Assembly (NCBI GenBank): GCA_045130235.1
Contig: JBGUPJ010000034.1
Location: 96,123-160,122, forward strand
Direction of reading: 5' to 3'
Source: Bacteroidales bacterium
GTDB lineage: Bacteria; Bacteroidota; Bacteroidia; Bacteroidales; WCHB1-69
Length of the DNA: 64,000 nucleotides
Below the pieces are notes generated by a model. It made no database searches. It worked only from the letters and a program-made list of their open reading frames with translations, and had not been told where the DNA came from. A program made the translations under genes and the position numbers. Every line of letters begins with the position of its first letter. Positions within the stretch are counted from its first letter, which is position 1. Of this stretch, positions 27,245 through 44,163 are shown in pieces.

Positions 27245-27246
27245 GT

Positions 27247-27381
27247 GAATTCGAAAAAAGACCAGACAATTTTCCGGACAAGTCGGCAAAAATTGATTTT
27301 TTGAAAGAGCTGATTGCCGACATTCAGGAGTGCATTGAAAAGGTGGAGAATGAGGAGGGGGATAACTGGTTAGGATTGTGA
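27247..27381 (+). pseudogene. 3' remnant of a paralog of the small gene at 32670-32882
   Basis: EFEKRPDNFPDKSAKIDFLKELIADIQECIEKVE versus EFEANPDNFPDKSAKIEFLKELIADIEECVERVE; no own start. Confidence 0.8.
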
Positions 27382-27501
27382 GATGAATGATTTTTTGCAT
27401 TTTTACAGCGTTATATTTTCAGATTTTGTTTCAAGGGGCTTCGGCAGGGTTTGGATGTATGACGTAATTAGCTAATAACAAGAAGTCTCTTTATTACTCT
27501 T

Positions 27502-28563
27502 ATGGCACAGTGGAAGACGTACACCATCAAGGACATTATTAATGAAATTGAATCAGAAACCTTCGTATTACCAATAATACAAAGAGAATTAGTTTGGGAT
27601 AAAGATAAGATTATTGCGTTATTTGAAACCATTATGCTGCAAGAATCTTTCGGCGGAATAATGACTGTAAAGGAACCAGCAAAGAAAGAGCCTTTATTTG
27701 CATATAAATCTTTTATAAAAGAATATTTAGGACATACTCCCGAAGCCAAAGAACATAAATTAACTGACAAGGAAATAAGTTATGTTATTGATGGGCAACA
27801 ACGTTTGTCTGCCATATATATTGGCGTTGCAGGTGAATATAATGGTGAGTCTTTATATTTTGACCTAAATGGGGAAGCCCAAAAAGGTGTGTTTAATTTT
27901 ACTTTTGCAAAAGATTACACATCAAACAAATTATCGAAAGACATCGATAATTTCGATGCATCATCTCGCAGATCAACTGCATGGATTCAAGTTTCTGACT
28001 TGTATCAATTAGCCATAGATGCTGGTGGCTTGCACACGACTATTATGGATGATGATAAAATAGTTGATTTCATTGATAAGGGAGCAGACAGGGAGACAAT
28101 ACTAGATAATATCTTATTGTTTACATCTTCATTTTTAATGAATTCCGTTATCGGTGTGTGTAGTGTTGATTATGACAAGCACAAAGATATTGATGAAAAT
28201 CGGGTTAGAATTGTGAAACTATTTCAAAAACTCAATCAAGGTGGCACAAAGCTCACAGCAATAGAGTTGATGTGAGCTTTTTTGAAATCATATTCTGTTA
28301 GTAACGAAATCAGGGACAAATATTCCGATGTTGGATTCAACAAGATGCTGTAATAAGTAACAGAAATATTGTCGTATAAGAGATATTGTGGTTATGGAAA
28401 ACAATTATTGAAATCCATATACTACCATTGTAAAGATTTAGGATTCAGACTATTTATCGAAAACACGGTGCTTCCTTTTTATCAAAGCATGGTAAGAAGG
28501 GGCGCAACCATCATTGAATATGGGAATATGGTTGAAATAACCAACAAAACAAATCTTGATTAG
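27502..28563 (+). pseudogene. DUF262 (GmrSD-like) protein, truncated at 28275 with degenerate remainder
   Basis: LP.IQRE.VW, VIDGQQRL, F.KLN.GGT.L; TGA immediately after the DUF262 domain; AT-rich debris follows. Confidence 0.75.
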
Positions 28564-28575
28564 TCTCTTCCCTTA

Positions 28576-28670
28576 TGCCCACCACCCTCATCACCTTCCA
28601 TCGCTACCACACCAATACGTAAAAATCCGCGTTTCCCGCGGGGTGAAAACCTTGTTCCTTTTTGCCCTGC
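28576..28670 (+). repeat. C-rich boundary repeat plus class II box
   Basis: tgcccaccaccctcatcacc...aaaatccgcGTTTCCCgcgggGTGAAAAccttg; copies at 34906, 43500 and partial at 34079. Confidence 0.8.
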
Positions 28671-28705
28671 ACCTTTCCATTTTCAATTCTCAATTTTCCA
28701 TTCCC

Positions 28706-28741
28706 TATGTCGTGGTTTGGCATACGTGGACCCTATTTTTG
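28706..28741 (+). promoter_or_regulatory. WYL box 2 plus -7 element
   Basis: TATGTCG-tggtt-TGGCATA-cgtggaccc-TATTTTTG. Confidence 0.72.
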
Positions 28742-28796
28742 TCGGCGAATTATCAACCTTTAGCAGTTGCGCCCGACACGAAGCAGGGCAGGAATT

Positions 28797-28931
28797 ATGT
28801 ACACCTTAAATTTTCCAAATGGCATGAGCCAAACGTACTCATCTGAAAGTGCACTGAGAGTTGCCGCAGAAAAGATGGGAGGAACAGCCAAACACATTGG
28901 CAACAAAACTTACGTGTTTGTGCCGAAGTAG
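28797..28931 (+). CDS. Small protein, 44 aa (below the ORF-track cutoff)
   Basis: MYTLNFPNGMSQTYSSESALRVAAEKMGGTAKHIGNKTYVFVPK*, between WYL box 2 and a terminator. Confidence 0.65.
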   Translation: MYTLNFPNGMSQTYSSESALRVAAEKMGGTAKHIGNKTYVFVPK

Positions 28932-28940
28932 TAGCAAGGG

Positions 28941-28970
28941 GAGGGGGAGGCTTCGGCCTCCCTCTTTTTC
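28941..28970 (+). terminator. Intrinsic terminator
   Basis: GGGAGGC-ttcg-GCCTCCC followed by TCTTTTT. Confidence 0.85.
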
Positions 28971-29060
28971 TACATAATGCCCCTGCATCATTCCACCAGC
29001 ACAGCAAGTCGCTGGCGGAATTCCCACCTTTCAGTTTTCAATTCTCAATTTTCAATTTCC

Positions 29061-29096
29061 TATGTCACGTTCTGTCATACCTGTACCCTAATTTTG
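29061..29096 (+). promoter_or_regulatory. WYL box 3 plus -7 element
   Basis: TATGTCA-cgttc-TGTCATA-cctgtaccc-TAATTTTG. Confidence 0.82.
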
Positions 29097-29138
29097 CCGG
29101 CAGTTTTCAAAACAATCATTCATCAAAAATGAAAAAAT

Positions 29139-29759
29139 ATGGAAAAACAACAATTAGACGATTATCTACTGAGCAAACAACTCAGGATAGAAGCTTTCAA
29201 AGAATTATCTGGTAGTTACCTGCTGACGGAGGAAATGATGCTCGCTTTTCAAAACGAATTAGACTGGACGAAAGTGTCTGCCAACAACAGTATTCCTTGG
29301 TGTGCCGGGAAAATCGAGCGGTGGAAAAGCCGTATTGACTGGAAGGTCTTCTCAAGCAACGTAAGTGCGAATGCTCTAACACCCAACAATATAGAACGGT
29401 TTAAGGACTATTGGGATTGGGAAGCGTTGTCCGGGAGATACGACTTGATTTACACTTGCGAGCTCATCGACAAATACCTCGACCGTTGGAATTGGACTAA
29501 ACTTATTAACAACTATTACAACAATGTCCAAAGATACTTCTACCATACCCATTACAGCCGGCTCGGCAGACGCACAGATTATGACCCTAAACACATTTCA
29601 TATCCACTGCCTCCTAAGGTTTTTCTTGAACGTTACCAGCAATATATACCTGTGGAAGATTTTGAAAACAGTGCTCTTTGGGATGCTCTCGTGGAAGACG
29701 AAAAAATGAGAATTGAGCAGGAGCTTGTAGAAATCGAGTGGCCAAATAAAAGCAAATAA
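29139..29759 (+). CDS. Tryptophan-repeat hypothetical protein A
   Basis: Repeated (I/W)DW..(L/F)S units; paralog of next ORF. Confidence 0.75.
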   Translation: MEKQQLDDYLLSKQLRIEAFKELSGSYLLTEEMMLAFQNELDWTKVSANNSIPWCAGKIERWKSRIDWKVFSSNVSANALTPNNIERFKDYWDWEALSGRYDLIYTCELIDKYLDRWNWTKLINNYYNNVQRYFYHTHYSRLGRRTDYDPKHISYPLPPKVFLERYQQYIPVEDFENSALWDALVEDEKMRIEQELVEIEWPNKSK

Positions 29760-29793
29760 AAACATTATTCAATACCAAACAGACACTTTAGTG

Positions 29794-30363
29794 ATGGACT
29801 CTCAAAAATCAAACTTCCCTCTGATAGAAAGAAGAATCCGGAAAGCGGCAATGAAGCGCATATCCGAAGATTATCCTCTTACAGAAGAATTATTAGAGTT
29901 TTATAAAGACGAGTTGGAGTGGTCTGGAATCTCGTTCAATCGTAATATCAAATGGAATGAACGAATGATCGAGCGGTGGAAAGACCGTATTGACTGGAAT
30001 GTCTTCTCACGCACTGTGGACACGGGAATTTTAACACCCAATAACATTGAACGGTTTAAGGACTATTGGGACTGGGGAGAACTCACCATGCGATTAACCT
30101 TGTCTTGCGAACTGATAGATCTGTATATCGACCGTTGGGAATGGTGGGTGATGCATGCCCCAAAGAGTGAACATATAGTGGCTGTCGATTCTTCGGAAGA
30201 AGCAGTTTCTCCCATGGATTTCCTATTGCGGTATTATCAGCACCTTCCCTTTGAGATTCTGCAATACAAATCGGGATTTTGGGGTCAGCTGGTCGAGGAA
30301 GAAATGAGGAATATTGTAAAAGAGTGGAACGCGTGCACAACTATATCAGCGACGACAACCTGA
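29794..30363 (+). CDS. Tryptophan-repeat hypothetical protein B
   Basis: Shares IERWK.RIDW.VFS and LTPNNIERFKDYWDW with protein A; 3' end runs into the rtcB fragment. Confidence 0.75.
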   Translation: MDSQKSNFPLIERRIRKAAMKRISEDYPLTEELLEFYKDELEWSGISFNRNIKWNERMIERWKDRIDWNVFSRTVDTGILTPNNIERFKDYWDWGELTMRLTLSCELIDLYIDRWEWWVMHAPKSEHIVAVDSSEEAVSPMDFLLRYYQHLPFEILQYKSGFWGQLVEEEMRNIVKEWNACTTISATTT

Positions 30364-30710
30364 TCCGCAAGGGTGCCATCTCCGCCCAAGAAGGCGAACG
30401 CTGCATCATTCCGCTCAACATGCGCGACGGCTCGCTCATCTGCATCGGCAAGGGCAACGCGGACTGGAACTGCTCTGCGCCGCATGGAGCCGGGCGCGTG
30501 ATGAGCCGTTCAAAGGCCTTCAAGGAACTGCGGCTGGATGATTTCAAAAGCTCCATGGAAGGCATTTACAGCGAAACCATTTCCAACGAAACCCTTGACG
30601 AAGCACCGATGGTGTATAAGCCTATGGATGAGATTCTGGCCAACATACAGGATACCGTTCGGGTGGAGAGCATCATCAAGCCGGTGTTCAATTTCAAAGC
30701 CGCCGAATAA
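30333..30710 (+). pseudogene. rtcB: RtcB RNA ligase, C-terminal fragment only
   Basis: HNY...IRKGA, IIPLNMRDGS, SAPHGAGR.MSR and DEAP..YK motifs; N-terminal two thirds absent. Confidence 0.88.
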
Positions 30711-30764
30711 CGACCAACGGTGGATGCGGCCAATCTTTTCCCTCAAATCTTAAACAACACGCCC

Positions 30765-30878
30765 CATTCCGCCAGCACTACCTTTCTGTTTTCCGTTTTC
30801 AGCCTTGAGACGGTGCATGCACCGTCTCTACCTTTCCATTTTCAATTCTCAATTTTCCATTTTCCGTTTTCCATTTCC
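30765..30878 (+). repeat. Intergenic module: CATTCCGCCAGCACTAC, REP-like palindrome GAGACGGTGCATGCACCGTCTC, heptamer run
   Basis: Near-identical copies at about 35790-35853 and 43971-44070. Confidence 0.85.
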
Positions 30879-30914
30879 TATGTCATGTCTTATCATACGT
30901 GGGTGCTAATTTTG
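30879..30914 (+). promoter_or_regulatory. WYL box 4 plus -7 element
   Basis: TATGTCA-tgtct-TATCATA-cgtgggtgc-TAATTTTG. Confidence 0.78.
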
Positions 30915-30941
30915 CTGGCGTAAAACATAATAAAAAGCATT

Positions 30942-31601: not shown

Positions 31602-31621
31602 TTATAAACTACAAAGAATTA

Positions 31622-32581: not shown

Positions 32582-32583
32582 GG

Positions 32584-32619
32584 TCTGCCCTGTTCTGTCA
32601 TACCTGTGCCCTAATTTTG
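32584..32619 (+). promoter_or_regulatory. WYL box 5 (degenerate left half) plus -7 element
   Basis: TCTGCCC-tgttc-TGTCATA-cctgtgccc-TAATTTTG. Confidence 0.72.
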
Positions 32620-32669
32620 CCAACGTATTACAAACCTTTAATAGTTGCACCCGACACGAATCAGGGATT

Positions 32670-32882
32670 ATGAATATGAACGATTACTATTTTTACGTTG
32701 CCCCAGACGAAGAAGGTTTGGGATGGGAATTCACAATCAGCGACTTGATTGAGAGTGAATTCGAAGCAAACCCCGACAATTTTCCAGACAAATCTGCAAA
32801 AATCGAGTTCTTGAAAGAATTGATTGCTGACATTGAGGAGTGTGTTGAAAGAGTGGAGAGGGAGGAGGAAATAACTGGATAG
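32670..32882 (+). CDS. Small acidic protein, 70 aa
   Basis: MNMNDYYFYVAPDEEGLGWEFTISDLIESEFE...; supported by a paralogous remnant at 27247. Confidence 0.72.
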   Translation: MNMNDYYFYVAPDEEGLGWEFTISDLIESEFEANPDNFPDKSAKIEFLKELIADIEECVERVEREEEITG

Positions 32883-32899
32883 AGCTATGGGGTGAAAGG

Positions 32900-32920
32900 G
32901 ATATTTTTGTAATTTTGCGG
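32900..32920 (+). promoter_or_regulatory. Repeated promoter module P* (GATATTTTTGTAATTTTGC)
   Basis: Identical core at 41867-41885 and 42785-42805, degenerate at 27389-27410; contains TAATTTTG. Confidence 0.7.
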
Positions 32921-33010
32921 GGTCATATTTTTCGTACTTTGTTTAGCGAACCTCGCATTGTATGGAAATGTGGCGAGAAAGAGTCAAAAATAGAGGTTCC
33001 CTAATGAATT

Positions 33011-34066
33011 ATGAAAAGGAATTATTGGATACATCGCATTAGTCATATTGCAGAGATTTCATACACTTTGCTTGATGATAATTATCTGAGTTACGGTTGG
33101 AGTGACTTCGAAGAAGATGGATTTATAGAAGGGGTTAGAAATGAGGGAGGTTGGCAATTCTTAGAAGAACGTTTTTTATCAGAATGGGGTGAATTGTCAA
33201 GAGGAAGATACCAATTATGGAATTTCATCAAAGAAATGAAAGCTGGTGACTGGGTTATAGTACCCACCAATGGTGCATTTTCCATATATGAACTATTGGA
33301 AAACGAACCAATCATGATAAAGGATATCAAAAATGTTGTAATAAAGAATTGGAATGGAGAAGAAATTCAAAGAGACGATAATGGTTATTTGATAAATAAT
33401 AATAACGATAGAATAGATCTTGGTTTTGCGAGGCGTGTTAAAGTCATACAAAAAAATATATCAAGATACGATTATGCTGATGCTGCATTAACTGCACGAT
33501 TGAAAGTAAGACAGACGAATGTCTGTATTAATGACTTACAAGAAAGTGTTCTAAAAGCGTTAGAAGGATATTTGAACAACAAACCTATTCATTTCCGAAA
33601 TGAAATCAACGATGTGATTCCCAATATTTGCTCAATTATTCAAACAAAATTGAACCCTAATAAGTTTGAGTATCTGGTAAAATGGTATTTTGAGAGAATT
33701 GGAGCAAGTTCTGTTGTCATCCCTCCCAAAAACCCATCTAGCAAAGTTGACTATGAGGATGTGGACGTAATAGCTACATTTGATTTACTGAAAACCATCT
33801 ATTATGTACAAGCTAAACATTATCGTGGAGAAACAGGCTCTTGGGGCGCTGATCAAATATCACATTTAAAAGAATTAGAATCGATTAAAGATGATAGACA
33901 AGACGATGGGTATACCAAAGTTTATTGGCTTATATCTTCTTCGGAACTCTTCACAGACGAATGTGTTAACAAAGCGAAGGAAACCAATGTGCAATTAATT
34001 GACGGCAAAATGTTTTCTTCAATGCTTTTAGATGCTGGTTTTCTTGGAGTAGGAGATGTGTTATAA
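33011..34066 (+). CDS. Mrr-type (type IV) restriction endonuclease
   Basis: C-terminal P..FE.LV, DVDVIA, VQAKH, LIDG Mrr catalytic motifs; N-terminal YGW...MK.GD.VIVP domain; AT-rich. Confidence 0.85.
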   Translation: MKRNYWIHRISHIAEISYTLLDDNYLSYGWSDFEEDGFIEGVRNEGGWQFLEERFLSEWGELSRGRYQLWNFIKEMKAGDWVIVPTNGAFSIYELLENEPIMIKDIKNVVIKNWNGEEIQRDDNGYLINNNNDRIDLGFARRVKVIQKNISRYDYADAALTARLKVRQTNVCINDLQESVLKALEGYLNNKPIHFRNEINDVIPNICSIIQTKLNPNKFEYLVKWYFERIGASSVVIPPKNPSSKVDYEDVDVIATFDLLKTIYYVQAKHYRGETGSWGADQISHLKELESIKDDRQDDGYTKVYWLISSSELFTDECVNKAKETNVQLIDGKMFSSMLLDAGFLGVGDVL

Positions 34067-34197
34067 ATAGGATATCCTTCATCACAGACTCCGCCCACTA
34101 CACCGCCGTGCTTGACCGCGCCATGAAGGCCAAGCCTCATTGTGGATTAGAACTGTCGATATCAAAGACAATGAAGATACTTTTTAACAGCACATTT

Positions 34198-34902
34198 ATG
34201 AAAAACAACTACTTAGACCCCTGCGATACAAAATACGATAATCAATTTGATAATATCAACCTTCTTCTAAGATATCCTTGGGTTGGCAATAATTATACAA
34301 GCAGCAAATGCCATGTGTTATTGTTAGGTGATAGCCATTATGCTACAAATGAAGATGGCTCTCATTCTGAAGAAGAGGAAATAAGATTCAAAACGGATAA
34401 AGGATCCACCCGTGGAACGATTAATTGCGTAATTGAAAACTTCTGCGAACAAGGTTCTTCATGGAAATTTTTTAACGGTCTTCTTAATACTTTCACCGGA
34501 ACAACTCCTGATTCTGTAAAGTCGTTTTTTGGAAAGGTTGCTTTCTATAATTTCATTCAAGAACCAATGAAACGCAGCAAGAGTAAACCGACGCCAAAAC
34601 AACAAAAAGACGGTTGGCAATGTTTGGCTAAGGTGACAGAGATATTGAATCCTGACTATATTATTCTTTTTGGCATACGGAATTGGTACGGGCTAGAAAG
34701 TCAAAAGATGGGAAATCTGACATGGGGAAAAAAGAAAAATGACAATTGTACGCCCGCCACAGGTTTTTTATTCACTTCAAATGGGGAAACTCCTCTTGCA
34801 ATAATCAAACATGCTGCATCACGAGGAGGATATAATCCATCAGCGTGGAGTAATTACCTCAAAGAGAAAGCACCAGATATCATGTCTTTTTTAATGAAAT
34901 AG
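34198..34902 (+). CDS. Uracil-DNA glycosylase-like superfamily protein 1
   Basis: PWVG.NY, LLLGDSHY, AFYNFIQ, L.PD.IILFG, IKH motif order; AT-rich. Confidence 0.6.
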   Translation: MKNNYLDPCDTKYDNQFDNINLLLRYPWVGNNYTSSKCHVLLLGDSHYATNEDGSHSEEEEIRFKTDKGSTRGTINCVIENFCEQGSSWKFFNGLLNTFTGTTPDSVKSFFGKVAFYNFIQEPMKRSKSKPTPKQQKDGWQCLAKVTEILNPDYIILFGIRNWYGLESQKMGNLTWGKKKNDNCTPATGFLFTSNGETPLAIIKHAASRGGYNPSAWSNYLKEKAPDIMSFLMK

Positions 34903-35011
34903 TCTTGCCCACCACCATCATCACTGACTCCAACCACTACACCACAATGCTTGACCTCGCGTTTTCCGCTGACTGAAACCCTTATATCCTTTCGTCCTCC
35001 CACAACACATC

Positions 35012-35641
35012 ATGCCCTATCCCATCATCGAAATCACCAAAACTTCCGAGTTGTTCCCGCCAGCTTTGTTGGCCATTGGCGAGGATTGTCCCGAAAGGCT
35101 GTGGCTGAGGGGCAACCTCGAGCTCCTGAAAACTGAAAAGAGCGTGGCCATCATCGGGGCACGGGCCGCCGATGCCGCTGGCTGCGCAAAAGCCTACAAC
35201 CTCGCAGTGGAGTTCGCACAGAAAGGCTATGTGATCGTGTCGGGCTTGGCATTGGGCTGCGACACCGCCGCCCACCAAGGCTGCCTCGCCGTCCACGGGA
35301 AAACCATCGCCATCGTCGGCTCCGGTCTGGACATCGTTCACCCCGTGGAGAACACGGAGCTGCAGGATCACATCCTCCGCCAGCAGGGACTGGTCATCAG
35401 CGAGCAGCCCCTTGGCGTGAAGGCCACCCCGAAGACACTCGTGAGGAGAAACCGTCTGCAAGCCGCCCTCAGTCAGATGGTGGTGGTGGCCCAATGCCCC
35501 GCCAAAAGCGGCACCCTCTACACGGTGGACTATGCCCTCAAGTATGGAAAAGCAGTGCTGGCCGCACAGTTCCCCTACCACAACGAAGCCACCGCCGGCA
35601 ACGACAACCTCCTGCGTGAGGGCATCGCCAGCCTGATTTAA
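35012..35641 (+). CDS. dprA: Short DprA/SMF-family protein
   Basis: P..L..RGN, VAIIGAR, IVSGLALGCDT.AH, RNRLQA.LS, SGT..T; lacks N- and C-terminal accessory domains. Confidence 0.9.
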   Translation: MPYPIIEITKTSELFPPALLAIGEDCPERLWLRGNLELLKTEKSVAIIGARAADAAGCAKAYNLAVEFAQKGYVIVSGLALGCDTAAHQGCLAVHGKTIAIVGSGLDIVHPVENTELQDHILRQQGLVISEQPLGVKATPKTLVRRNRLQAALSQMVVVAQCPAKSGTLYTVDYALKYGKAVLAAQFPYHNEATAGNDNLLREGIASLI

Positions 35642-35683
35642 TCCTTACCCCCACCAATCTCACGTTTCATGCGGGCAGTGATT

Positions 35684-35706
35684 GGACGCATGCGATGCGT
35701 CCCTAC
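35684..35706. repeat. REP-like palindrome GGACGCATGCGATGCGTCCCTAC
   Basis: Identical copy at 43872-43894; related inverted copy at 57878-57901; GTAG foot on reverse strand. Confidence 0.75.
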
Positions 35707-35856
35707 ATTGTCTCTCACCCTTTCCCAAAAAATTTCCGCGTTTCCCGCGGGGTGAAAACCTTGTATCATTTTGCCCTGCATTCTCGCACCATTCCGCCAG
35801 CACTACCTTTCAGTTTTCCGTTTTCAGCTTTGAGACGGTGCATGCACCGTCTCTGC

Positions 35857-35892
35857 TATGACACGATTTGACATACCCGTATCTTATTTTTG
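35857..35892 (+). promoter_or_regulatory. WYL box 6 plus -7 element
   Basis: TATGACA-cgatt-TGACATA-cccgtatct-TATTTTTG. Confidence 0.78.
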
Positions 35893-36041
35893 TATGCGTG
35901 AAAATGCGTGCAAAAACAGGTGGGCTCTTTGTGCCCTTTGCAGCCCCATGCAACTGTCTGCTATTAGCAAACCACATAAAGCCGAGATTTTGCATTGTAT
36001 TTTTGCATCGTTTTTTTTAGAGAATCAAACAACGTAAATAT

Positions 36042-37109
36042 ATGGCAATTAACACACACGAACTGTACGAAATCTTGGAGGCGATGCCCGCCTCGCAAAA
36101 CCTGATGCTGGTGGGAAAACACGGCATCGGCAAATCGGAGATCCTCACCCACTACTTCGAGCGGCTGGGCATTCCCGTCAACACCCTGTTTCTCGGGCAG
36201 ATGAGCGACCCGGGCGACCTCATCGGTCTGCCCCGTCTGGACGAAACCACCGGCAAGACCGTCTTCATGCCGCCCTACTGGTTTCCCACCGACGGCCAGC
36301 CCATCGTGCTCTTCCTCGACGAGCTGAACCGCGCCCGTCCCGAGGTGCTGCAAACCGTGATGGATCTCACCCTCAACCGCAAACTGGCCGGCCGCGCCCT
36401 GCCCGAAGGCAGTCGCCTTATCGCCGCCGTGAACGACGGGGAGGAGTACCAGCTCACCGACCTCGACCCCGCCCTCGTGTCGCGCTTCAACATCTACACC
36501 TTCCGCCCCTCCGCACAGGAATGGCTGCTCTGGGCCAGCACGAACCAACTCGACCCACGGGTGATTGACTTCATCCGCCACAACCCGAAGATGCTCGACG
36601 GCGATGGCAGCGCCGATAACCCCGACCGCGGTCTCGACAAGACGCCCGACCGCCGCGCATGGAAAAAGGTGTCCGACTGCATCGCGCCCATCGAACAGCT
36701 GGGCGACCTCCACAAAAAGTTGATCGCTGGCATCGTCGGCCCCATCGCCACACAAGCCTTCTTCTCGTTCCTCACCACCAACCGCATCCTTTCCGGACAG
36801 GACATTCTGCTCAACTATGCCAAAAACAAGTCTGCCCTCCGCAAGTACCACCTGCATGAGATGGCCATGGTGAACGAAAGTATCTTCCGCTTCTTGGAGG
36901 TGAACGAGCTTACTGCAGAACAAACCAAGTCTGCCGCTGATAATTTGAAGCTGTACGTCAACGACTTGGAGAAAAGCCATCGTAACGAGGAGCTGGCACA
37001 CTTCGCCTCCTTCTTTGAAAAAGAAAGCTACCCCAATGCCATCAGCTTTATCCTTACGGAAGCCAATGAGGTGTATGATACGGTCATCCAGTTTGTCCAA
37101 AATTTGTAA
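36042..37109 (+). CDS. MoxR/dynein-related AAA+ ATPase
   Basis: Walker A GKHGIGKS, D..DL.GLP, Walker B LFLDELNRA, DPAL.SRF. Confidence 0.92.
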   Translation: MAINTHELYEILEAMPASQNLMLVGKHGIGKSEILTHYFERLGIPVNTLFLGQMSDPGDLIGLPRLDETTGKTVFMPPYWFPTDGQPIVLFLDELNRARPEVLQTVMDLTLNRKLAGRALPEGSRLIAAVNDGEEYQLTDLDPALVSRFNIYTFRPSAQEWLLWASTNQLDPRVIDFIRHNPKMLDGDGSADNPDRGLDKTPDRRAWKKVSDCIAPIEQLGDLHKKLIAGIVGPIATQAFFSFLTTNRILSGQDILLNYAKNKSALRKYHLHEMAMVNESIFRFLEVNELTAEQTKSAADNLKLYVNDLEKSHRNEELAHFASFFEKESYPNAISFILTEANEVYDTVIQFVQNL

Positions 37110-37190
37110 GTAGGAAGTAAAAAGTAGAAAGTTAAAAGTAAAAAGTAAAAAAATATGAGGCTGTTAACTCTTAACTCTTAGTTCTTAACT
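37110..37190. repeat. Convergent heptamer runs (AAAAGTA... / ...TTAACTC)
   Basis: aagtaaaaagtagaaagttaaaagtaaaagtaaaa then ttaactcttaactcttagttcttaact. Confidence 0.6.
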
Positions 37191-38495
37191 ATGAAAGAAA
37201 TGATTACCAAAATTGTGGAACTGTGGTTTTTGAGCGAGCCCGCTCTGTTCGCCATCTACTGCAACCAGCAGCTGCGTGAGAACCACAACATGCAGTGCGG
37301 GGTGCGGTGCGGGAAAGGTTTTGTGGAATACAACCCCACGCTCCTCGAAACGGAGAAGGTGAGCGAAGAACAGCTGGAAGAGCTGATGCGTACGGAGATG
37401 ATCCGGCTGTTTCTGAAGCACCCGTACCAGCGGCAGCCGGAGAATGTCCTGCCTGAAGCACTCACCCTCGGCAGCGACATGGTGCTGGCGCAACATTACC
37501 GCCTGCAACGTACGGGAATGATCACCCCTGATGCATTCCAACTTACTAAAAACCAATGTTTTGAATGGTATGTCAACAGGTTGGACGGACTGCTGCGGCA
37601 ACCCTTTCAGGCCAACACTCAGGATTCGGGAAAGAATGAAGATGAAACCGGAGGCAGTGATTCTGACCAAAAGTTGGGAAATAGCTTGAGCGATGACGGC
37701 ATGAATGGCAAGGGCGAAGGAAACGGCGACGGTGCGGCACAAGGGAGCGGAGGTGGCGGAATGAAGCTGGAAAGAGAAGGACAGAGCAGTCAAAGTAGTG
37801 GCACCCTTTCAGACCGGCAGCGCCGGGCACTGGCCGACCAGTCGGGCCTGTGGGAGGAGGACGAGCTGCGGCAGCAGGAGATCAACGAGATCATCCGCGA
37901 CACCACCCAGTGGGGTACGATTCCGGGCGACATGGTGGAACAGATCCTCGCCTCGCTGGTGGTGAAGATGGACTACCGCAAGGTGCTGTCGGCATTCCAC
38001 ACCAGCATCCTGACGAGCCGCCGCAAGCTCACCCGCATGAAACCCAACCGGCGGAGTGGTTTCGCACAGATGGGCAGTCGCTACGACCTCGCCTCCAAAC
38101 TGTTGGTGGCGGTGGACGTGAGCGGCTCCATCAGCACGAAGACCTTGACGGCCTTCTATTCAGCCATCGCGCGGTTCTTCCAATACGGCGTGGAAACCAT
38201 CGATGTGGTGCAGTTCGACACGGTGCTGCGCGAGGTGACCACCTTCGGGAAACGTCCGCGCATGGTGGAGGTGAAAGGGCGCGGCGGCACCAGCTTCCAA
38301 CCCATCTTCGACCACCTGAAAACGCACCCAGACTACGACGGCTGCATCATCTTCACCGACGGCTATGCCGATGAACCCCATGTGGACTTCCTCCTTAAAT
38401 CCAAGGTGTTATGGGTGTGCCGCAGCGAAAAAGAATATAACGAGCACGCCAAATGGATGCGGGAAACAGGAAAATCTTGCTGGATTGAATTTTAG
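37191..38495 (+). CDS. DUF2201 family VWA-like domain protein
   Basis: Low-complexity G/S/D linker; MIDAS VDVSGS, QFD, GRGGT.F.P, IIFTDG. Confidence 0.88.
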   Translation: MKEMITKIVELWFLSEPALFAIYCNQQLRENHNMQCGVRCGKGFVEYNPTLLETEKVSEEQLEELMRTEMIRLFLKHPYQRQPENVLPEALTLGSDMVLAQHYRLQRTGMITPDAFQLTKNQCFEWYVNRLDGLLRQPFQANTQDSGKNEDETGGSDSDQKLGNSLSDDGMNGKGEGNGDGAAQGSGGGGMKLEREGQSSQSSGTLSDRQRRALADQSGLWEEDELRQQEINEIIRDTTQWGTIPGDMVEQILASLVVKMDYRKVLSAFHTSILTSRRKLTRMKPNRRSGFAQMGSRYDLASKLLVAVDVSGSISTKTLTAFYSAIARFFQYGVETIDVVQFDTVLREVTTFGKRPRMVEVKGRGGTSFQPIFDHLKTHPDYDGCIIFTDGYADEPHVDFLLKSKVLWVCRSEKEYNEHAKWMRETGKSCWIEF

Positions 38496-38506
38496 AAATT
38501 TTAAAT

Positions 38507-39874
38507 ATGGATATACAAGAATTAAAAGATCTTTCGGTAGAAAATTTTAACACCATCCACACACAGTTGTGGAATAGGATTCTCCGTCAAAAGTATGAAA
38601 AGGAGTTTTTCTCCCATAAAGAGAAGAAGCCTGTTCAGATTGACAAGTTGCCTGAACGCATGAAAGCGCTCTACCCAGGTGCGAAAATCACTTTTGAAAA
38701 AATTAGTCAGAATGGAAAAGAAAAGGAACAGTGGAAATACATTGTTCTGCCCAATGTGGGCGTTGAAAGGCTGCCCTATTGGGGAACCCCGCTCGGGATT
38801 GAAGGCGCGAGTACGGGTAACTATTGCCGTATTGCCGATCCATTGGGATTTCTGAAAGACATTAACGAGCAGATGCCGAAGTGGAAAGAGGAATTCAGGG
38901 AGTTGTGCAAAAAATATGAAACTGAACTGAAAGCCCTGGAATACAGGCGGCTGGAGTATTGTATAAAGGAGGGTGAGACCCATGTGGATAATTTACAATA
39001 CAGGCTGGATGACTTTTTGCTGCTGGAACGTTCCATGCCCCGTAATCCGGAACATCTGCTGCAGGAGTTCAACGCTTCTGCGGATGTAAAAGCAAGCATT
39101 ACGGACAATGCTTTGACAAAATACCAGTTGCGGAACATGCAAGTGCGCTTTTGGAAAAGTGAATTGCGGTATTACTTTATTGTAAGAGAAAACTTTCATC
39201 GTTCCGAACTTGACATCGGAGAGAAAGAACTTTCACTGAAAAAACTTCAAGAAATTGACTGTCAGCTTCCTATATGGGAAGAGGAGACAAAAAACCTCTT
39301 GTTTGAATTACAGAAAAAAGAGAAGACCGACAAAATCGGGCAGAACGTGCTGCAGACGCTGGTGATGCAGCGGATGCGGGAACTGGGGCTGGAATACCAG
39401 ATTGAAAAAAAGGACCTCTGTGGGGATATTGAGCTGACGGTGAAGCTGAAGAAACGGAGGATGCTGAAAATCACCTTGCAAGCCAACGACAGCGACCGCG
39501 TGCAACAGCAGATTGACAATTTGGCACAGTACGTGGCCACCCTCAACATGCTCTCGGGTGACTATCGCATCGAAAAGGAAAGAAAACAGAAAACCTCTGA
39601 GAAGCAAGATGTGGTGCAGCGTCTGGCAGAACAAAAGATGCAGGAATTGGGACTGGAGTACAGGATAGAAAAAGACTACTGGTTCGTTACGCTGATCGTG
39701 GAGTTGGAAAAACAGAGGTGCCTGAAGATAAAGCTGCCTACCGGTCACCCCGAGTGGGTGGAGCAAAAGCTTGCCCATCTTGCACAGGATGTCGCCACCC
39801 TCAACCATATCCCGGTGGAGTTCTGCATCACTCCGCAAGATGTCAATATAGAATGGCAGAAGGAAAGAAGATAG
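38507..39874 (+). CDS. Hypothetical protein P1 (C-terminal domain tandemly duplicated)
   Basis: MRELGLEYQIEK... repeated as MQELGLEYRIEK...; paralog of next ORF. Confidence 0.78.
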   Translation: MDIQELKDLSVENFNTIHTQLWNRILRQKYEKEFFSHKEKKPVQIDKLPERMKALYPGAKITFEKISQNGKEKEQWKYIVLPNVGVERLPYWGTPLGIEGASTGNYCRIADPLGFLKDINEQMPKWKEEFRELCKKYETELKALEYRRLEYCIKEGETHVDNLQYRLDDFLLLERSMPRNPEHLLQEFNASADVKASITDNALTKYQLRNMQVRFWKSELRYYFIVRENFHRSELDIGEKELSLKKLQEIDCQLPIWEEETKNLLFELQKKEKTDKIGQNVLQTLVMQRMRELGLEYQIEKKDLCGDIELTVKLKKRRMLKITLQANDSDRVQQQIDNLAQYVATLNMLSGDYRIEKERKQKTSEKQDVVQRLAEQKMQELGLEYRIEKDYWFVTLIVELEKQRCLKIKLPTGHPEWVEQKLAHLAQDVATLNHIPVEFCITPQDVNIEWQKERR

Positions 39875-39904
39875 CAGAAACGCATTAAATTGATTTTTAA
39901 GAAT

Positions 39905-41023
39905 ATGGATATACAGAAATTATTAAACAGTTCTTTGAAGAGCAACAGAACCACGCTCACTTCGTTGTATTTGGAATTCATTAGAGAGAAAAACAATCAA
40001 CTGGTATCCCAGCACTTCGAAGGTCGTACTCCCTACAATACCCTGCCGTATCTTCTTCGGAATACTATGCCTGAAACCGAGGTGATTCTTTATACCGGAG
40101 ATAAGGTCAGCGTTCTTGAAAAGGGGGTGCATGCGTGGCGCTATCTTGTCCTTCCGAACGTGGTTTTTCAAAGTCATGGATCCGCGAGCTACCGTAGCCT
40201 TTCCATTTGTGAAGAGACTGTGTGGTTGGGTACCAATTCCGTGAACTACCTCATCGCCGTCAACAATCAGATGCCGCAGTGGAAAGCGGAATTTAAGGAG
40301 ATTTGTTCACAATATAAATCTGAAATACAGGAGATTGAACGAAAACGGCAGGAGAAGATCGCCCAACATCACCTTCATGCCTTCATCTCGACCTATCTTC
40401 AGGACAAGGTCGATGACTGGCTGTTGTTGGAGCGCCGCACACCCGATTATGCGGAGCGGTTGCTGCGTTGCATCATGGCGGCGGCGGGCAAGACATTTGA
40501 TTGGAAAAAACGGGACTATAGCGTCGAATACAAGCTGCCGAACATGCGGGTGATGGTTCAGAAGGGAAGTCCGTGGTTTTTTCCCCAGGCAACCATTTCC
40601 TACAAGGGCAACACCCTCAAATTCAGGGAGCGGGACATTTCGTTGGAAATGTTGCAAGAACTTGACCATCAATTATCTATCTGGAATGAAGAGGCAAAGA
40701 CCATCCTGCTCGACTTGCAGAAAAAGGAGAAGGCGGAACAGCTCGGTCGCAATGTGATGCGTGCACTGGTGAAGCAGAAAATGCGGGAACTCAAAATGGA
40801 ATACCAGCTTGAGGACGATCTCGAAAAGGGAAATCTGATTTTGGCTTTGAAGTTGGAGAAGCGGAGGATGATAAAAGTCACTCTGCGGTCGGGGCATATT
40901 GACTTGATGAAGCGGCAGCTCGACACCTTGGAGGAGATTGTGAGTGCGCTCAACGCCGTGCCGATGGATTACCGCATCTATTTCCAAAGCAACAACACAG
41001 TGTGGCAGAAGGAGGCGGAATAG
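39905..41023 (+). CDS. Hypothetical protein P2 (paralog of P1)
   Basis: Shared MDIQ, W.Y.VLPNV, QMP.WK.EF.E.C, LLLER, LQKKEK and W.KE motifs. Confidence 0.78.
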   Translation: MDIQKLLNSSLKSNRTTLTSLYLEFIREKNNQLVSQHFEGRTPYNTLPYLLRNTMPETEVILYTGDKVSVLEKGVHAWRYLVLPNVVFQSHGSASYRSLSICEETVWLGTNSVNYLIAVNNQMPQWKAEFKEICSQYKSEIQEIERKRQEKIAQHHLHAFISTYLQDKVDDWLLLERRTPDYAERLLRCIMAAAGKTFDWKKRDYSVEYKLPNMRVMVQKGSPWFFPQATISYKGNTLKFRERDISLEMLQELDHQLSIWNEEAKTILLDLQKKEKAEQLGRNVMRALVKQKMRELKMEYQLEDDLEKGNLILALKLEKRRMIKVTLRSGHIDLMKRQLDTLEEIVSALNAVPMDYRIYFQSNNTVWQKEAE

Positions 41024-41084
41024 CGGGATTGATAATTCCACCACCATTTCATTTTCAATTTTTCGTTTCCCATTTTCCATTTGC

Positions 41085-41120
41085 TATGTCACGTTCTGTC
41101 ATACCTGTACCCTAATTTTG
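41085..41120 (+). promoter_or_regulatory. WYL box 7 plus -7 element
   Basis: TATGTCA-cgttc-TGTCATA-cctgtaccc-TAATTTTG, identical to box 3. Confidence 0.82.
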
Positions 41121-41142
41121 CCGCATCCAAAAACCCACACCT

Positions 41143-41856
41143 ATGACAACCACCACACAACCACAAAACAACGAGGAATCTCTTCGACAGGCGGTAGAAA
41201 TCTTGAACGAAGTAGTGGCCTCCACCGCCCACATTGAGGATGATGCGAGGCGCATTAAGCACATCCTGTTGCACCGGCACCAATGCAGCCTGGATGCGCT
41301 CACCAACAAATGTGAAATGGACAGCCATTGGATGAGGATGGAGAAAATGCTGCACATTGAGGCTTTTTGGACCTTCATCAACCCGAAGCCAGACGACCCG
41401 CGGTATGCACAGCACCGGATGAACTATGTGATCGAGATGCTGCTGCGGTGCGAAAAGAATGCGACGGGGTCTTTCGTGGACGTGGATGCACGGCTGCAAC
41501 AGAACCCGCACTACCTGTTTGAGCGCTGCCTGCCCATCATGCTGGACATGGAGGCCGAAAAAGTGCCATTTCTGCGATGCGACCTCTCCCTTGACGAGCT
41601 GATGGAGGAGGAATTGCTGATGCCCGTCTGCCTGCACGAAATCAGTCCGGGGATGTTTGCGCTTTGGATGGCGGTGAAAATGATGTTCGAGCGGATGTGG
41701 TCGTGGTACACCCATATGGAATTGGATTACAAGGAGGAGTGCTTCGAGGCGGATGCCAACGGCGTGCGCGACCTCCTCTCACAATTCATCGAAGCCAAAG
41801 AGGAAGACCTCGTCCCGACCGGCAAAACGTTGGGGGACTATTTGGGGGAGGATTAA
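41143..41856 (+). CDS. Hypothetical protein
   Basis: 237 aa ORF directly after WYL box 7. Confidence 0.72.
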   Translation: MTTTTQPQNNEESLRQAVEILNEVVASTAHIEDDARRIKHILLHRHQCSLDALTNKCEMDSHWMRMEKMLHIEAFWTFINPKPDDPRYAQHRMNYVIEMLLRCEKNATGSFVDVDARLQQNPHYLFERCLPIMLDMEAEKVPFLRCDLSLDELMEEELLMPVCLHEISPGMFALWMAVKMMFERMWSWYTHMELDYKEECFEADANGVRDLLSQFIEAKEEDLVPTGKTLGDYLGED

Positions 41857-41969
41857 GTGTGAGTGAGATATTTTTGTAATTTTGCAGAGTAAACTCATTA
41901 CGATTTGCTTCTCCATAAAGAGGTTTTTGCTAAGCATTTTCCAAAATAATTCAATAAATACACAATACT

Positions 41970-42782
41970 ATGTTAGGCGCAATTATTGGCGACACCGCCG
42001 GTTCGGTGTATGAATTTGACAACATTAAAACAACGGATTTCCCGTTTTTTAATAATCGCAGTGAATTTACGGATGACAGTTTGATGTCGTTTGCCGTGGC
42101 CGACTGGCTGTTGCACGACAGCGACCACACGCACCCTGCGTTGGAGGAGGCGATGGTGCGTATCGCCCATGAGTTCCCCAATCCGATAGGTGGTTATGGG
42201 GGTAGTTTTTACCGATGGCTGTTCAGCGGACGGGAACGCAAGCCCTACAACTCATGGGGCAACGGCTCGGCTATGCGTGTGAGTGCCGTGGGATGGGCTT
42301 TTGACACATTGGAGGAGACCCTCCGTGTGGCCGAGATTTCGGCTTCCATCACCCACAACCATCCAGAGGGCATCAAGGGGGCGCAAGCCACTGCTGCCGC
42401 CATCTTTCTTGCCCGAAACGGCAAGGCAAAGAACGAGATCAAGTCCTATATTGAAGAGACATTCGGCTATGACCTGCACCGCACTTGCGATGAGATTCGA
42501 CCATACTATCAATTTGATGAGAGCTGTCAGGGCACGGTGCCGGAAGCCATCATTGCTTTCCTCGACAGCAGCGATTTCGAGAATGCCATCCGGCTGGCCG
42601 TTTCGCTTGGCGGCGACAGCGACACCATCGCCTGCATCACCGGCGGCATCGCCGAAGCTTACTACAAGGAGATTTCTGAAGAAATCGTCCGGCAGATGTG
42701 GCAGCGGCTTCCCGAGTGTTTCCGCGAAATATTGCGGGAGATGAGGGAAAGGTTCGGGTACCCATTACCGATAAGGGAGTAA
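41970..42782 (+). CDS. ADP-ribosylglycohydrolase family protein
   Basis: GAIIGD..GS.YEF, FTDD, GNGSAMRVS, THNHP, GGDSDTIA.I.G. Confidence 0.93.
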   Translation: MLGAIIGDTAGSVYEFDNIKTTDFPFFNNRSEFTDDSLMSFAVADWLLHDSDHTHPALEEAMVRIAHEFPNPIGGYGGSFYRWLFSGRERKPYNSWGNGSAMRVSAVGWAFDTLEETLRVAEISASITHNHPEGIKGAQATAAAIFLARNGKAKNEIKSYIEETFGYDLHRTCDEIRPYYQFDESCQGTVPEAIIAFLDSSDFENAIRLAVSLGGDSDTIACITGGIAEAYYKEISEEIVRQMWQRLPECFREILREMRERFGYPLPIRE

Positions 42783-42863
42783 AGGATATTTTTGTAATTT
42801 TGCGGCTGATATTATTAAACCAAATGTTGCATTTGTAACTTGAATTCAGTAAATCAATGTAAA

Positions 42864-43487
42864 ATGGTAAAGCAAGAATTATTCATTGGAAACCATTATT
42901 ATAATGGTATATATGGCAAAAAAGTAATGGTCGTCGGCCACCAAAAACATGCTACAGATAAGGAAAGAGCTCTGTATAAGGACAATCCTATGGCATATAA
43001 TGTATCAACCGATAATACAGACATGTTAAAAGAGCTCATTAGTGGTGAGTGTATGGAATGGGAACATAGAGACCGTAAAGCTTGGTTGCAGTTTGGAAAA
43101 ATGCTCTCAGGGAATCTCAACTTTAATTTAGGAACAGAACAAAGTTCTAAACTGTTTGATTCTATAGCATTCTGTAATTATCTTCAAATTCCAGATATTG
43201 CATTAGACAATAGGCAAGGTAAAGATGAGGAATGCTTATATGTATATTCAGAGAATATTTTTAAAGAATACTTAGAGGAAGCAAAACCAGACAAAATCAT
43301 AGTTTGGGGTGAACCATACAAATATATCAAAAAGATAGGCACAGAACTTGATGATAGAAATTGTAGAATTGCATCGCCTTTGCATGGGAAAATTGATGTC
43401 TTAAAGATCAATCATCCATGCAGAGTTGAAAGAGGTGGTTATGATGAAATGATTAAAAGAATAAAAGCTTTTATTCAGAAGAATTAG
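42864..43487 (+). CDS. Uracil-DNA glycosylase-like superfamily protein 2
   Basis: FIG..Y, KVMVVGH, IAFCNYLQ, KPD.IIVWG, INHP motif order; AT-rich. Confidence 0.58.
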   Translation: MVKQELFIGNHYYNGIYGKKVMVVGHQKHATDKERALYKDNPMAYNVSTDNTDMLKELISGECMEWEHRDRKAWLQFGKMLSGNLNFNLGTEQSSKLFDSIAFCNYLQIPDIALDNRQGKDEECLYVYSENIFKEYLEEAKPDKIIVWGEPYKYIKKIGTELDDRNCRIASPLHGKIDVLKINHPCRVERGGYDEMIKRIKAFIQKN

Positions 43488-43607
43488 GTTTTATTACTAT
43501 GCCCACCACCCTCATCATCTTCCATCACTAACACACCACCGTGCTAAAAAATCCGCGTTTCCCGAGGGGTGAAACCCTTATGTCCTTTCGTCCTCCCACA
43601 ACCCATC

Positions 43608-43841
43608 ATGCCCTATCCCATCATCGAAATCACCCAAGCTTCCGAGCTGTTCCCGCCCTTGCTGCGGGCCATTGGCGAGGATTGTCCCGAAAGGCTGTGG
43701 CTGAGAGGCAACCTCGAGCTTTTGAAAGCTGAAAAGAGCGTGGCCATCATCGGGGTACGGGCCGCACAGTTCCCCTACCGCAACGAAGCCACCGCCGGCA
43801 ACGACAACCTCCTGCACGAGGGCATCGCTGGATTGATTTAA
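43608..43841 (+). pseudogene. dprA: dprA duplicate with in-frame 396-bp internal deletion
   Basis: Closely matches both ends of 35012-35641, joined at a GGCCGC microhomology. Confidence 0.9.
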
Positions 43842-44070
43842 TAATACTGCGTTTTTTCGCGGAATATAATCGGACGCATGCGATGCGTCCCTACATTGTC
43901 TCTCTCCCTTTCCCCAAAAAAATCCGCGTTTCCCGCGGGGTGAAAACCTTGTGGCTTTTTTGTCCGAACACCATTCCGCCAGCACTACCTTTCAGTTTTC
44001 CGTTTTCAGCTTTAAGACGGTGCATGCACCGTCTCTACCTTTCCATTTTCAATTTCCATTTTCCATTTAC

Positions 44071-44106
44071 CATGCCGCACTTTGTCATACCTGCGCCGTA
44101 CTTTTG
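44071..44106 (+). promoter_or_regulatory. WYL box 8 plus -7 element
   Basis: CATGCCG-cactt-TGTCATA-cctgcgccg-TACTTTTG. Confidence 0.72.
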
Positions 44107-44163
44107 CCACCGAAAAAACTTGTACCTTTGCCGCCCGAAAATGCCGGCACCAAAAAGACTCGT

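Follow-up and report, generated by a model that had tools for sequence, protein, structure and literature searches.

Within a stretch of 64,000 nucleotides (nt) from a Bacteroidales bacterium (assembly GCA_045130235.1, contig JBGUPJ010000034.1, positions 96,123 to 160,122; hereafter, the window), the segment between 25.4 and ~46 kb is likely to be a mosaic defence island that is wired to one WYL-domain regulator, turns over by homologous or short-homology recombination and resembles an integron by analogy only. According to its sequence, it would be a chromosomal, strain- or species-variable anti-phage island of an uncultured gut or rumen Bacteroidales, lying between housekeeping genes. The main organising feature of this island is a repeated operator-promoter tied to the divergently transcribed WYL regulator gene. 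It was missed in a first-pass annotation, where the region was presented as an integrase-free array of defence genes exchanged between a shared left module, P*, and a shared right module.

The source genome (G000) is represented by an assembly of 2.51 Mb in 50 contigs, which is 86% complete and has a GC content of 49.9%; its contigs bear C-numbers, C34 being the one with the island. Related genomes are named G001, G004, G005, G006 and G016, and L-numbers denote loci of relatives. Metagenome runs X2, X3 and X16 are distinct from proteins X1 and X2, the island cargo with a predicted uracil-DNA glycosylase (UDG) fold. The window was scanned with Pfam, PADLOC, a repeat search and a blastn self-comparison. 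The metagenome runs that carry the stretch come from animal gut, and the promoter type together with the type IX secretion system (T9SS) sorting domains indicates its origin from Bacteroidota. The genes of the array are all on the + strand, as are all the repeat modules, which lie between 26.4 and 44.7 kb save for two weak chance matches elsewhere in the window.

The WYL regulator and its repeated operator-promoter

The regulator gene (25455..26366, - strand) encodes a protein of 303 amino acids (aa) with WYL (PF13280, 2.2e-11) and WCX (PF25583, 1.1e-8) domains by Pfam and a WYL match by PADLOC (5.9e-29), and its best sequence matches in the Protein Data Bank (PDB) are C-terminal parts of DriD (E ~4e-6). 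A search for related loci with this protein gave only four close relatives (L038-L041), and five other WYL-protein matches in G000 are located on contigs C15, C21, C41 and C48. At the head of the G001 island, there are two tandem WYL genes (L016 2003-3921), 68% and 34% identical to the protein of the window.

The divergent control region (26383..26468) contains the palindrome TATGACA-N5-TGTCATA, a second, diverged copy of it and a -7 box facing each way. Its orthologues have two perfect palindromes in G004, G005 and G006 and one in G016; the palindrome on the side of the WYL gene is perfect in five genomes and stands at the same 9-nt distance from the regulator's own -7 box. The layout recurring in the array consists of heptamers, TATGnCA-N5-TGTCATA, 9 nt, TAATTTTGC and a start codon 21-57 nt further on, the MoxR unit being an exception in start spacing, with a second -7 box closer to the start. 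This operator-promoter heads eight of the 11 inferred transcription units, a further copy serving the divergent WYL gene, and has been copied together with ~80 nt of flanking sequence. On the + strand, its copies stand before a 44-codon open reading frame (ORF) at ~28797 (28706..28742) and before the tandem paralogues 29139-29759 and 29791-30363 (29061..29097); in the segment 30764..30915, an HP hairpin and T-rich heptamers are followed by the copy for the genes 30942-31601 and 31622-32581. In two further segments a copy, a gene and P* come one after another, namely, in 32584..32918 with a small gene (32670-32882, 70 aa) and P* at 32900, and in 41085..41885 with an unknown gene (41143-41856) and P* at 41867.

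The palindrome pattern has 10 matches at seven sites in the window versus 0.14 expected, and the operator copies are all on the + strand within 26.4-44.1 kb. Allowing up to three mismatches, the operator 25-mer was detected in 5 out of 41 related genomes, only on island contigs and each time including one copy next to the WYL gene; the composite operator motif (up to one mismatch) has seven copies in G000, all of them on this contig, and its backward control has none across the genus. The half-site is TGTCATA in five genomes and TTTCATA in three, and in each genome the type at the WYL promoter is that of the array, with one exception among the eight boxes of the TTTCATA genomes, in which the WYL protein is only 62-68% identical. 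Since the half-site covaries between the WYL promoter and the array, the palindrome may be regarded as the putative operator of this regulator, and in our opinion this is the strongest argument available.

The same repeats might have arisen by plain segmental duplication followed by decay, with no shared regulation, the palindrome being a conserved part of a duplicated intergenic block. The modules are, indeed, clearly mutual copies (families D1, D4 and D6, 65-96% identity), and pseudogene fragments are many. However, conservation over 27 aligned copies is highest in the palindrome and the -7 box, and the spacers vary; the half-site variant has been kept at both the WYL promoter and the array in two clades, and the palindrome-to-box spacing is fixed at 9 nt. 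Duplication without shared regulation is considered unlikely on these grounds.

If the island is under the control of the WYL protein, this regulator would bind the palindrome at all the copies, so that all units of the island would respond to one signal. If DriD and PafBC are a guide, the signal would probably be single-stranded DNA (ssDNA) resulting from damage or phage attack; the control could be activation or repression. In the portion of the literature source drawn on here, DriD of Caulobacter is described as a WYL activator having a 20-bp palindromic operator, found also at its own promoter, and ssDNA as a ligand, and PafBC of mycobacteria as a WYL activator of promoters without a functional -35 element (PMC9186387). 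The protein of the window is similar to DriD in its best structure matches, and the position of the operator directly upstream of the -7 box is comparable with PafBC promoters. Unlike the DNA-damage regulons of both activators, which in that portion of the source are scattered on the chromosome, the present sites are clustered in one variable defence island.

In the case of BrxR, another relevant regulator, two promoters of the pEFER island carry the inverted repeats, with a 5-bp spacer, to which the protein binds, and CapW is also named among winged helix-turn-helix (wHTH)-WYL-WCX regulators in the corresponding part of that paper (PMC9122601). Common to BrxR, as presented there, and our case are the WYL gene at the edge of a mosaic restriction-type island and an inverted repeat with a 5-bp spacer at its own and a further promoter. 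In contrast to BrxR, a repressor with two R-BOX sites and 11-bp arms in the same account, nine palindrome copies with 7-bp arms are placed here 9 nt before a -7 box, and among solved structures the sequence of the protein matches DriD, not BrxR. Both mosaic defence islands and adjacent WYL regulators are already known; the large number of copied operator-promoters is unusual. No paper describing an island in which every unit is preceded by a copy of a WYL operator-promoter emerged from a literature search, which did not take in the inverted-repeat list for 193 BrxR homologues and is no proof of absence.

One operator-plus-promoter copy lies outside the island, at 59656-59691 on the - strand. 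It is of the TTTCATA type (TATGCCATACATTTTCATA, 9 nt, TATTATTTTTG) and stands ~35 nt before an ATG; the ORF that follows has an end looking MreB/actin-like by eye, and an orthologous site is present in G001.

The left and right modules of the array

The exact copies of P* (GATATTTTTGTAATTTTGC) at 32900, 41867 and 42785, reported in the first-pass annotation together with a degenerate copy at 27389, were found again by the repeat search and the blastn self-comparison. The sequence has no other exact copy in the 2.51-Mb assembly; the copy at 27389 is degenerate in that TAnnTTTG is missing upstream of 27502, and it precedes a truncated GmrSD_N gene. With up to three mismatches, P* occurs at 70 sites of the genome versus one site each in reversed and complemented controls. 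Nearly all these sites have an ATG within ~20-110 nt downstream, often that of an ordinary gene (as judged by eye, ORFs not being called), and P*-like sites are present in 13 of the 18 other genomes of the genus. The shared core is a T-run followed by GTAnnTTTGC. It contains TAnnTTTG, which is given as the consensus of the Bacteroidota promoter -7 box in the portion of the source used (PMC7366714).

P*, as its sequence indicates, is a generic Bacteroidota promoter, composed of a T-rich tract and a -7 box, and not a dedicated boundary element; genome-wide scatter of the boundary motif was one of the conditions under which, according to the first-pass annotation itself, the proposal of a special left module would fail. 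Identical 19-mers also recur at unrelated promoters (for example, GATTTTTTTGTATTTTTGC, four times in the genome), so that a match over 19 nt among the three copies in the island is weak evidence of their common descent. A scan for sigma-70 promoters and terminators was set aside as inapplicable to Bacteroidota. More generally, Bacteroidota -7 boxes and repetitive extragenic palindromic (REP) hairpins can mimic dedicated recombination modules.

The right module (TGCCCACCACCNTCATCA) is indeed present at 28576, 34906 and 43500 (three matches versus 0.00 expected from 100 shuffles of the window), and the partial copy, at 34079-34175, lacks the first ~12 nt. In relatives, the same 18-mer, preceded by A, opens an intact ORF of 171 aa at four loci (L017 2933, L016 13818, L021 6215 and L024 2415), and the 171-aa protein of L024 is a PLDc_2 protein (Pfam 2.1e-14). 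In the three copies of G000, which comprise the start codon and 40-58 nt of this gene, named Y, the reading frame stops after 10-23 codons, and a REP1-like hairpin follows. Judging from this comparison, a phospholipase D (PLD) nuclease gene has left its 5' stub as the right module. G000 has four such stubs, all on the + strand: a solo stub at 28575..28671 (15 codons, then a REP1 hairpin element), one without a start codon at 34079..34175, which was read against the intact copies in relatives, one at 34905..35011 (23 codons with TTG replacing ATG, then REP1-like sequence) and one that begins the block 43499..44107. The only other match of the right module in the genome, on C48, belongs to unrelated, apparently coding, sequence, and a second island on C48 was rejected for this reason.

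In four relatives (L016 12520-14331, L018, L021 and L024), a gene of a 427-aa AAA_14-DUF4143 ATPase stands directly before gene Y or its opening sequence; Y was checked to be intact (171 aa) in two of these loci and runs off the fetched locus in one. The two genes are a candidate two-gene defence system, as far as their arrangement tells.

A block that occurs in duplicate and consists of the stub, REP1-like sequence, ShosA, REP2, REP1, HP, heptamers and the promoter includes two of these stubs. Its complete copy contains the ShosA-like gene of a DprA-fold protein (35012..35641, + strand, 209 aa; Pfam DNA_processg_A 1.2e-57, PADLOC ShosA 4.8e-59), followed at 35681..35893 (+ strand) by the REP2, REP1 and HP hairpins and a degenerate operator-promoter copy. 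In the block 43499..44107, the order is stub, REP1-like sequence, a deleted ShosA copy (43608-43841), REP2, REP1, HP, heptamers and operator-promoter. By self-comparison, 34906-35169 is 85% identical to 43500-43765 and 35560-35854 is 83% identical to 43760-44036, so the second copy lacks ~390 nt internally; the joined ends of the deletion share a short GGCCGC-like repeat (by eye). What was called dprA is, by sequence comparison, a ShosA-like gene plus one internally deleted copy. The protein is of the ShosA type, as in Shosta systems, and covers positions 84-271 of the 303 positions of the PADLOC profile; unlike in Shosta, positions 1-83 are missing, and no ShosT was found by PADLOC among the 20 island proteins scanned. 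The solo stub with REP1 at 28575 would be the expected residue of a REP1-by-REP1 deletion of the same block. Recurrence of the scaffold, therefore, holds for both the dprA block and the small gene (76% identity), and three copies of one unit can be recognised, in line with the original proposal.

Other parts of the scaffold are common to the genome. The HP hairpin GAGACG-N-CGTCTC has 49 genome copies versus one for a control palindrome, and arrays of at least three TTTTCAA-type heptamers number 89 versus 13 in the control, 11 of them ending within 10 nt of a -7 box. These heptamer runs are frequent in intergenic DNA, often after a GAGACG...CGTCTC hairpin, and may be T-rich terminator tails. 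Together with the HP hairpins, they are read as genome-wide punctuation of the terminator or REP-like kind, not specific to the island. In family D4, the block 30764-30915 is 93-96% identical to 35785-35854 and 43971-44071. REP1 is confined to the island in the source genome, and REP2 was counted in the window and the fetched loci. At 44655-44682, behind the RNase T gene, there is a perfect palindrome of 28 nt (GTAGAGACG...CGTCTCTAC type); it has identical copies on at least seven other contigs and is a member of the genome-wide hairpin family.

Variation among relatives and gene turnover

The first-pass annotation recommended comparing the locus across strains; the comparison made here, between species, showed that G016 and G006 differ from G000 in the cargo enclosed by the same boundaries. 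In G016, the slot of the truncated GmrSD_N gene of G000 (27502..28275) is occupied by a PDDEXK_4 gene and that of Mrr and X1 by a pair of GmrSD genes, and the whole segment 35893-43753 between the two ShosA blocks, including the genes at 36042..41023, is absent. G006 has the same P*-ADP-ribosylglycohydrolase-P* block, 93% identical, and then a 544-aa GmrSD gene where G000 has X2. The array of G001 contains a largely different gene set, and the cargo of relatives also includes AAA_14-DUF4143 with a PLD nuclease, AAA ATPases, HSDR_N and Mrr_N. Parts of the scaffold are 83-96% identical, while the cargo is unrelated or, as with X1 and X2, only 21% identical, in agreement with the initial description. 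The enclosed genes were rightly described as AT-rich, with 33-35% GC at 27.5-28.5, 33-34 and 43-43.5 kb versus 61% at 35-35.5 kb and 49.9% in the genome.

Some of the differences may be connected with repeats. One hybrid gene of G016 corresponds to the tandem paralogues 29139-29759 and 29791-30363, whose proteins are 41% identical, and is consistent with an unequal crossover in a 112-nt stretch of 82% identity. Metagenome contigs, possibly chimeric at repeats, gave further variants: in runs X2 and X3, contigs skip from 38503 to 39902 with a precise loss of 38507-39874, the paralogues sharing 14 nt at the joint, and another contig has gene 41143 placed before the 30891 promoter. Gaps in contig cover (for example, 27401-28067 and most of 31.4-44 kb in run X16) were not counted as evidence, and joints having sides of 20-25 nt (for example, 32882->42783 and 29056->42787) were discarded as promoter or heptamer similarity only.

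It could be suspected that the repeats are chimeras of a metagenome-assembled genome, all the more so with 50 contigs, 86% completeness and many contigs of relatives ending inside the island. This suspicion is hardly credible, because independent assemblies (G016 and G006) are collinear across module-gene junctions and contigs of other runs span 32775-33896 (P*-Mrr), 34204-35233 (X1-stub-ShosA) and 28500-28930 (stub-REP1-promoter). The first-pass annotation had named assembly chimerism as a way in which its reading could fail, and on this side it stands.

The analogy with integrons needs closer consideration. Integrons and CALINs, like the present array, are composed of units that follow one another on one strand and vary in content, whereas their boundary sequences recur; characteristic of them are IntI, an attC site at the 3' end of each cassette and promoterless cassettes served by Pc. 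A platform of this kind would use P* and the right module as sites of a recombinase encoded elsewhere that moves promoterless cassettes. Such a possibility is suggested by the cargo of G016 and G006, which differs although its boundaries are identical, by the position of the ADP-ribosylglycohydrolase gene between two P* copies, by the stub of gene Y directly after four different genes, which resembles a 3' cassette site, and by the breaks of homology within a few nt of the -7 box. On the other hand, P* matches a genome-wide promoter consensus, the right module represents the 5' end of a real gene (171 aa), and a single truncation with subsequent duplication of the stub-REP1-ShosA block accounts for three of the four stubs. 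TAnnTTTG is found within 160 nt upstream of 11 of the 20 genes, and the remaining genes follow a gene having one, so the array is not made of promoterless cassettes. A PF00589 search of the whole assembly gave a single match above the cut-off, located on C23, and a weak fragment on C28; there was no tyrosine recombinase on C34, and Pfam scans showed no recombinase among the ORFs of the island and its flanks, as already stated for the window. The recurring 3' elements are short perfect hairpins of the genome-wide family and a gene stub; Rfam matched 0 families in the window, no attC model being applied. In contrast to integrons and CALINs, IntI is missing from the contig, the boundaries are promoters, REP hairpins and a gene stub, and the units have their own promoters. 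We consider an integron-like platform highly improbable, and of the functional likeness to integrons only the analogy is left.

The mosaic, WYL-wired reading explains the same data by ordinary processes. The scaffold would be made up of promoters, punctuation hairpins and heptamers, relics of rearrangement and the island-specific operator-promoter, where the relics would be the four stubs of gene Y, the ShosA-like gene with its deleted copy, the small-gene remnant and the RtcB and GmrSD fragments. In the course of turnover, genes would be duplicated, deleted, converted or replaced when repeated modules recombine, through homology or short homology, with each other or with related DNA from outside, and no dedicated site-specific recombinase would take part. 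Recombination of this type is suggested by the G016 hybrid gene, the G016 loss between the ShosA blocks, the internal deletion of ShosA, the solo stub and the metagenome contigs that skip from 38503 to 39902. Of the slot swapping proposed earlier, the variation of cargo in relatives has been upheld, and the role of the modules as dedicated sites has not, the modules being a promoter and a stub. Competence-driven exchange via uptake sequences was dropped, since the 10-nt Neisseria uptake motif occurs only three times and the promoters are of the Bacteroidota type.

At three P* sites and at the 35869 box, homology between genomes breaks off within 0-5 nt of the -7 box, the ends at 32923, 35892 and 42803 lying behind the box; it resumes at the start of REP1 at 28621 (G016), at the ShosA start codon at 35009 or at the start of a palindrome at 41079. 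Sharp ends of this kind are expected wherever a gene-specific leader adjoins a conserved promoter. It is also possible, with a good deal of doubt on our side, that the operator-promoter on the left and the stub with REP on the right act as portable homology arms, incoming defence genes being swapped in at the transcription start and thereby wired to the WYL sensor. Just as tentatively, this would amount to an integrase-free, recombination-based cassette platform under one alarm signal, whose footprint is the sharp ends after the -7 box in five comparisons.

Several points weigh against the mosaic, WYL-wired island with recombinational turnover. The control of the island by the WYL protein is read from sequence, and no RNA runs containing the stretch were found. 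Residues 1-120 of the protein gave no helix-turn-helix (HTH) domain by Pfam and nothing by NCBIfam, and the protein has no sequence match to the BrxR or CapW structures. Several array operators have a degenerate left half-site, where another factor, or none, could act. The comparisons are between species and between metagenome contigs, possibly chimeric at repeats, and not between strains of one species. The sharp ends of homology at the -7 box could hint at a mechanism more specific than general recombination; similarly, on a contig of one run, a 29073-type promoter is joined to the MoxR leader just after the -7 box. Finally, a recombinase could be missing from an assembly of 86% completeness.

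Cargo genes and significance of the island

The first unit after the regulator is a DUF1835/DUF3658 gene (26501..27244, + strand; Pfam), its start being set by the 247-aa orthologue of G016, 98.8% identical. It is followed at 27245..27407 (+ strand) by what remains, at the 3' end, of a gene paralogous to the small gene 32670-32882 (58% identity by tblastn over 60 aa) and by a decayed P*; in the self-comparison, 27245-27431 and 32755-32944 are 76% identical. The next gene (27502..28275, + strand) encodes the N-domain only of a GmrSD_N (DUF262) type IV restriction protein (Pfam 1.1e-22), which covers positions 20-269 of the 600-position PADLOC profile HEC-05. An RtcB C-terminal fragment (30279..30710, + strand) corresponds to positions 278-425 of 426 of the Pfam profile; elsewhere in the genome, one WYL match on C41 lies ~1.4 kb from an RtcB gene. 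The Mrr-type restriction gene (33011..34066, + strand; Pfam Mrr_cat 9.6e-11) and X1 precede ShosA. Behind it, the genes at 36042..41023 (+ strand; Pfam) encode a MoxR AAA+ protein, a VWA/DUF2201 protein and two unknown paralogues (38507-39874 and 39890-41023), 35% identical and sharing the same 21-nt start region (family D11). The ADP-ribosylglycohydrolase gene with P* at 42785 (41970..42803, + strand; Pfam ADP_ribosyl_GH 3.2e-39) precedes X2, and the genes of an RNase T/DEDDh exonuclease and a RhuM-Fic protein (44164..45755, + strand; Pfam, PADLOC PDC-S48/DEDDh and PDC-S23) end the series. The labels DUF262, Mrr, ADP-ribosylglycohydrolase and dprA, given initially without database searches, agree with Pfam GmrSD_N, Mrr_cat, ADP_ribosyl_GH and DNA_processg_A. 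NCBIfam gave no useful names for the 10 island proteins scanned, and 12 of the 20 island proteins had no match in PADLOC.

The label UDG-like was apt for two proteins having no Pfam match, which are distant homologues of each other, one with a modelled UDG fold. X1 (34198..34902, + strand, ~234 aa) represents a family of 68 proteins without a Pfam domain. A sequence search of the PDB with X1 gave nothing. The clusters obtained from ESM Atlas for island proteins are for the most part without a name, with a single weak lead to UDG. The AlphaFold2 model of X1 (pLDDT 92.9) was compared with the PDB by Foldseek: the top 44 listed matches are TDG, MUG, UdgX, SMUG1 and family-4 UDG, with E from 6e-5, and the 20 matches with E <=0.001 all belong to the UDG superfamily (TM 0.34-0.55). 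According to this model, X1 has the UDG alpha/beta fold. X2 (42864..43487, + strand) is 21% identical to X1 over 220 aa (BLASTP, E 4e-4) and matches the X-family profile, of which it was itself one input row. Brig1 is a defence glycosylase of the UDG superfamily, and the X proteins are like such glycosylases in their predicted fold. An obligate pair of X and ShosA was ruled out: a ShosA-like neighbour was found at 0 of the 11 X loci elsewhere (fetched flanks up to ~1.5 kb), and ShosA of G016 directly follows the GmrSD pair.

It is owing to the GmrSD_N, Mrr, ShosA, DEDDh, PDC-S23 and WYL matches and the UDG fold of X that the island is read as anti-phage. The genes could instead be mainly orphan immunity genes against interbacterial toxins in a recombinase-less relative of rAID-1. 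ADP-ribosylglycohydrolases and small unknown proteins might, as we presume, serve as immunity proteins. Shared features are the bacterial order (Bacteroidales), co-directional genes, repetitive intergenic sequence and several low-GC genes, and in the part of the source used, rAID-1 is likened to integrons by its authors and defined by an XerD-like recombinase with >44% identity to BF9343_RS08045 and at least two co-directional genes with GC <=41% (10.1101/471110). Unlike rAID-1, as characterised in that part, with its 5' XerD-like recombinase and immunity genes, the island has a WYL regulator and nuclease or defence cargo, and no recombinase was found on the contig by the PF00589 profile, used in place of a comparison with BF9343_RS08045. 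About half of the array has 50-61% GC, and only three segments have 41% or less. The named cargo belongs to nucleases and known defence families by Pfam and PADLOC, and no Pfam immunity family was matched, the published immunity profiles not being in the search. We regard a relationship of this kind as very unlikely and retain the anti-phage reading.

The island is flanked on the left by genes of a T9SS-tailed protein, TerC, an RsmD-like methyltransferase, Sir2 and MBL and on the right by those of saccharopine dehydrogenase, DnaN, DPP-IV and TopA. At its right end (45970-46119) lies a dispersed repeat of ~145 nt that resembles a miniature inverted-repeat transposable element (MITE) or REP; at least 10 other contigs carry copies with 71-92% identity to it, and it occurs also in relatives. 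The adjoining segment 45772-45971 shares 95% identity with a stretch of G001 immediately behind the gene of a 605-aa AAA ATPase and reads by eye as a candidate fragment of an ATPase gene.

Summarizing the data, the island bears on the problem of how defence genes can be kept under common regulation while their set is constantly changing. The UDG-fold X family, the pair of AAA_14-DUF4143 and PLD genes and the MoxR-VWA cassette are candidate defence genes supplied by it. One answer to the problem, at the level of sequence, is a copy-and-paste promoter with a putative regulator site before nearly every unit, the cargo changing immediately downstream of it. If binding and induction prove true, this would be a regulon that grows by duplication of a promoter module and not by the evolution of sites one at a time.

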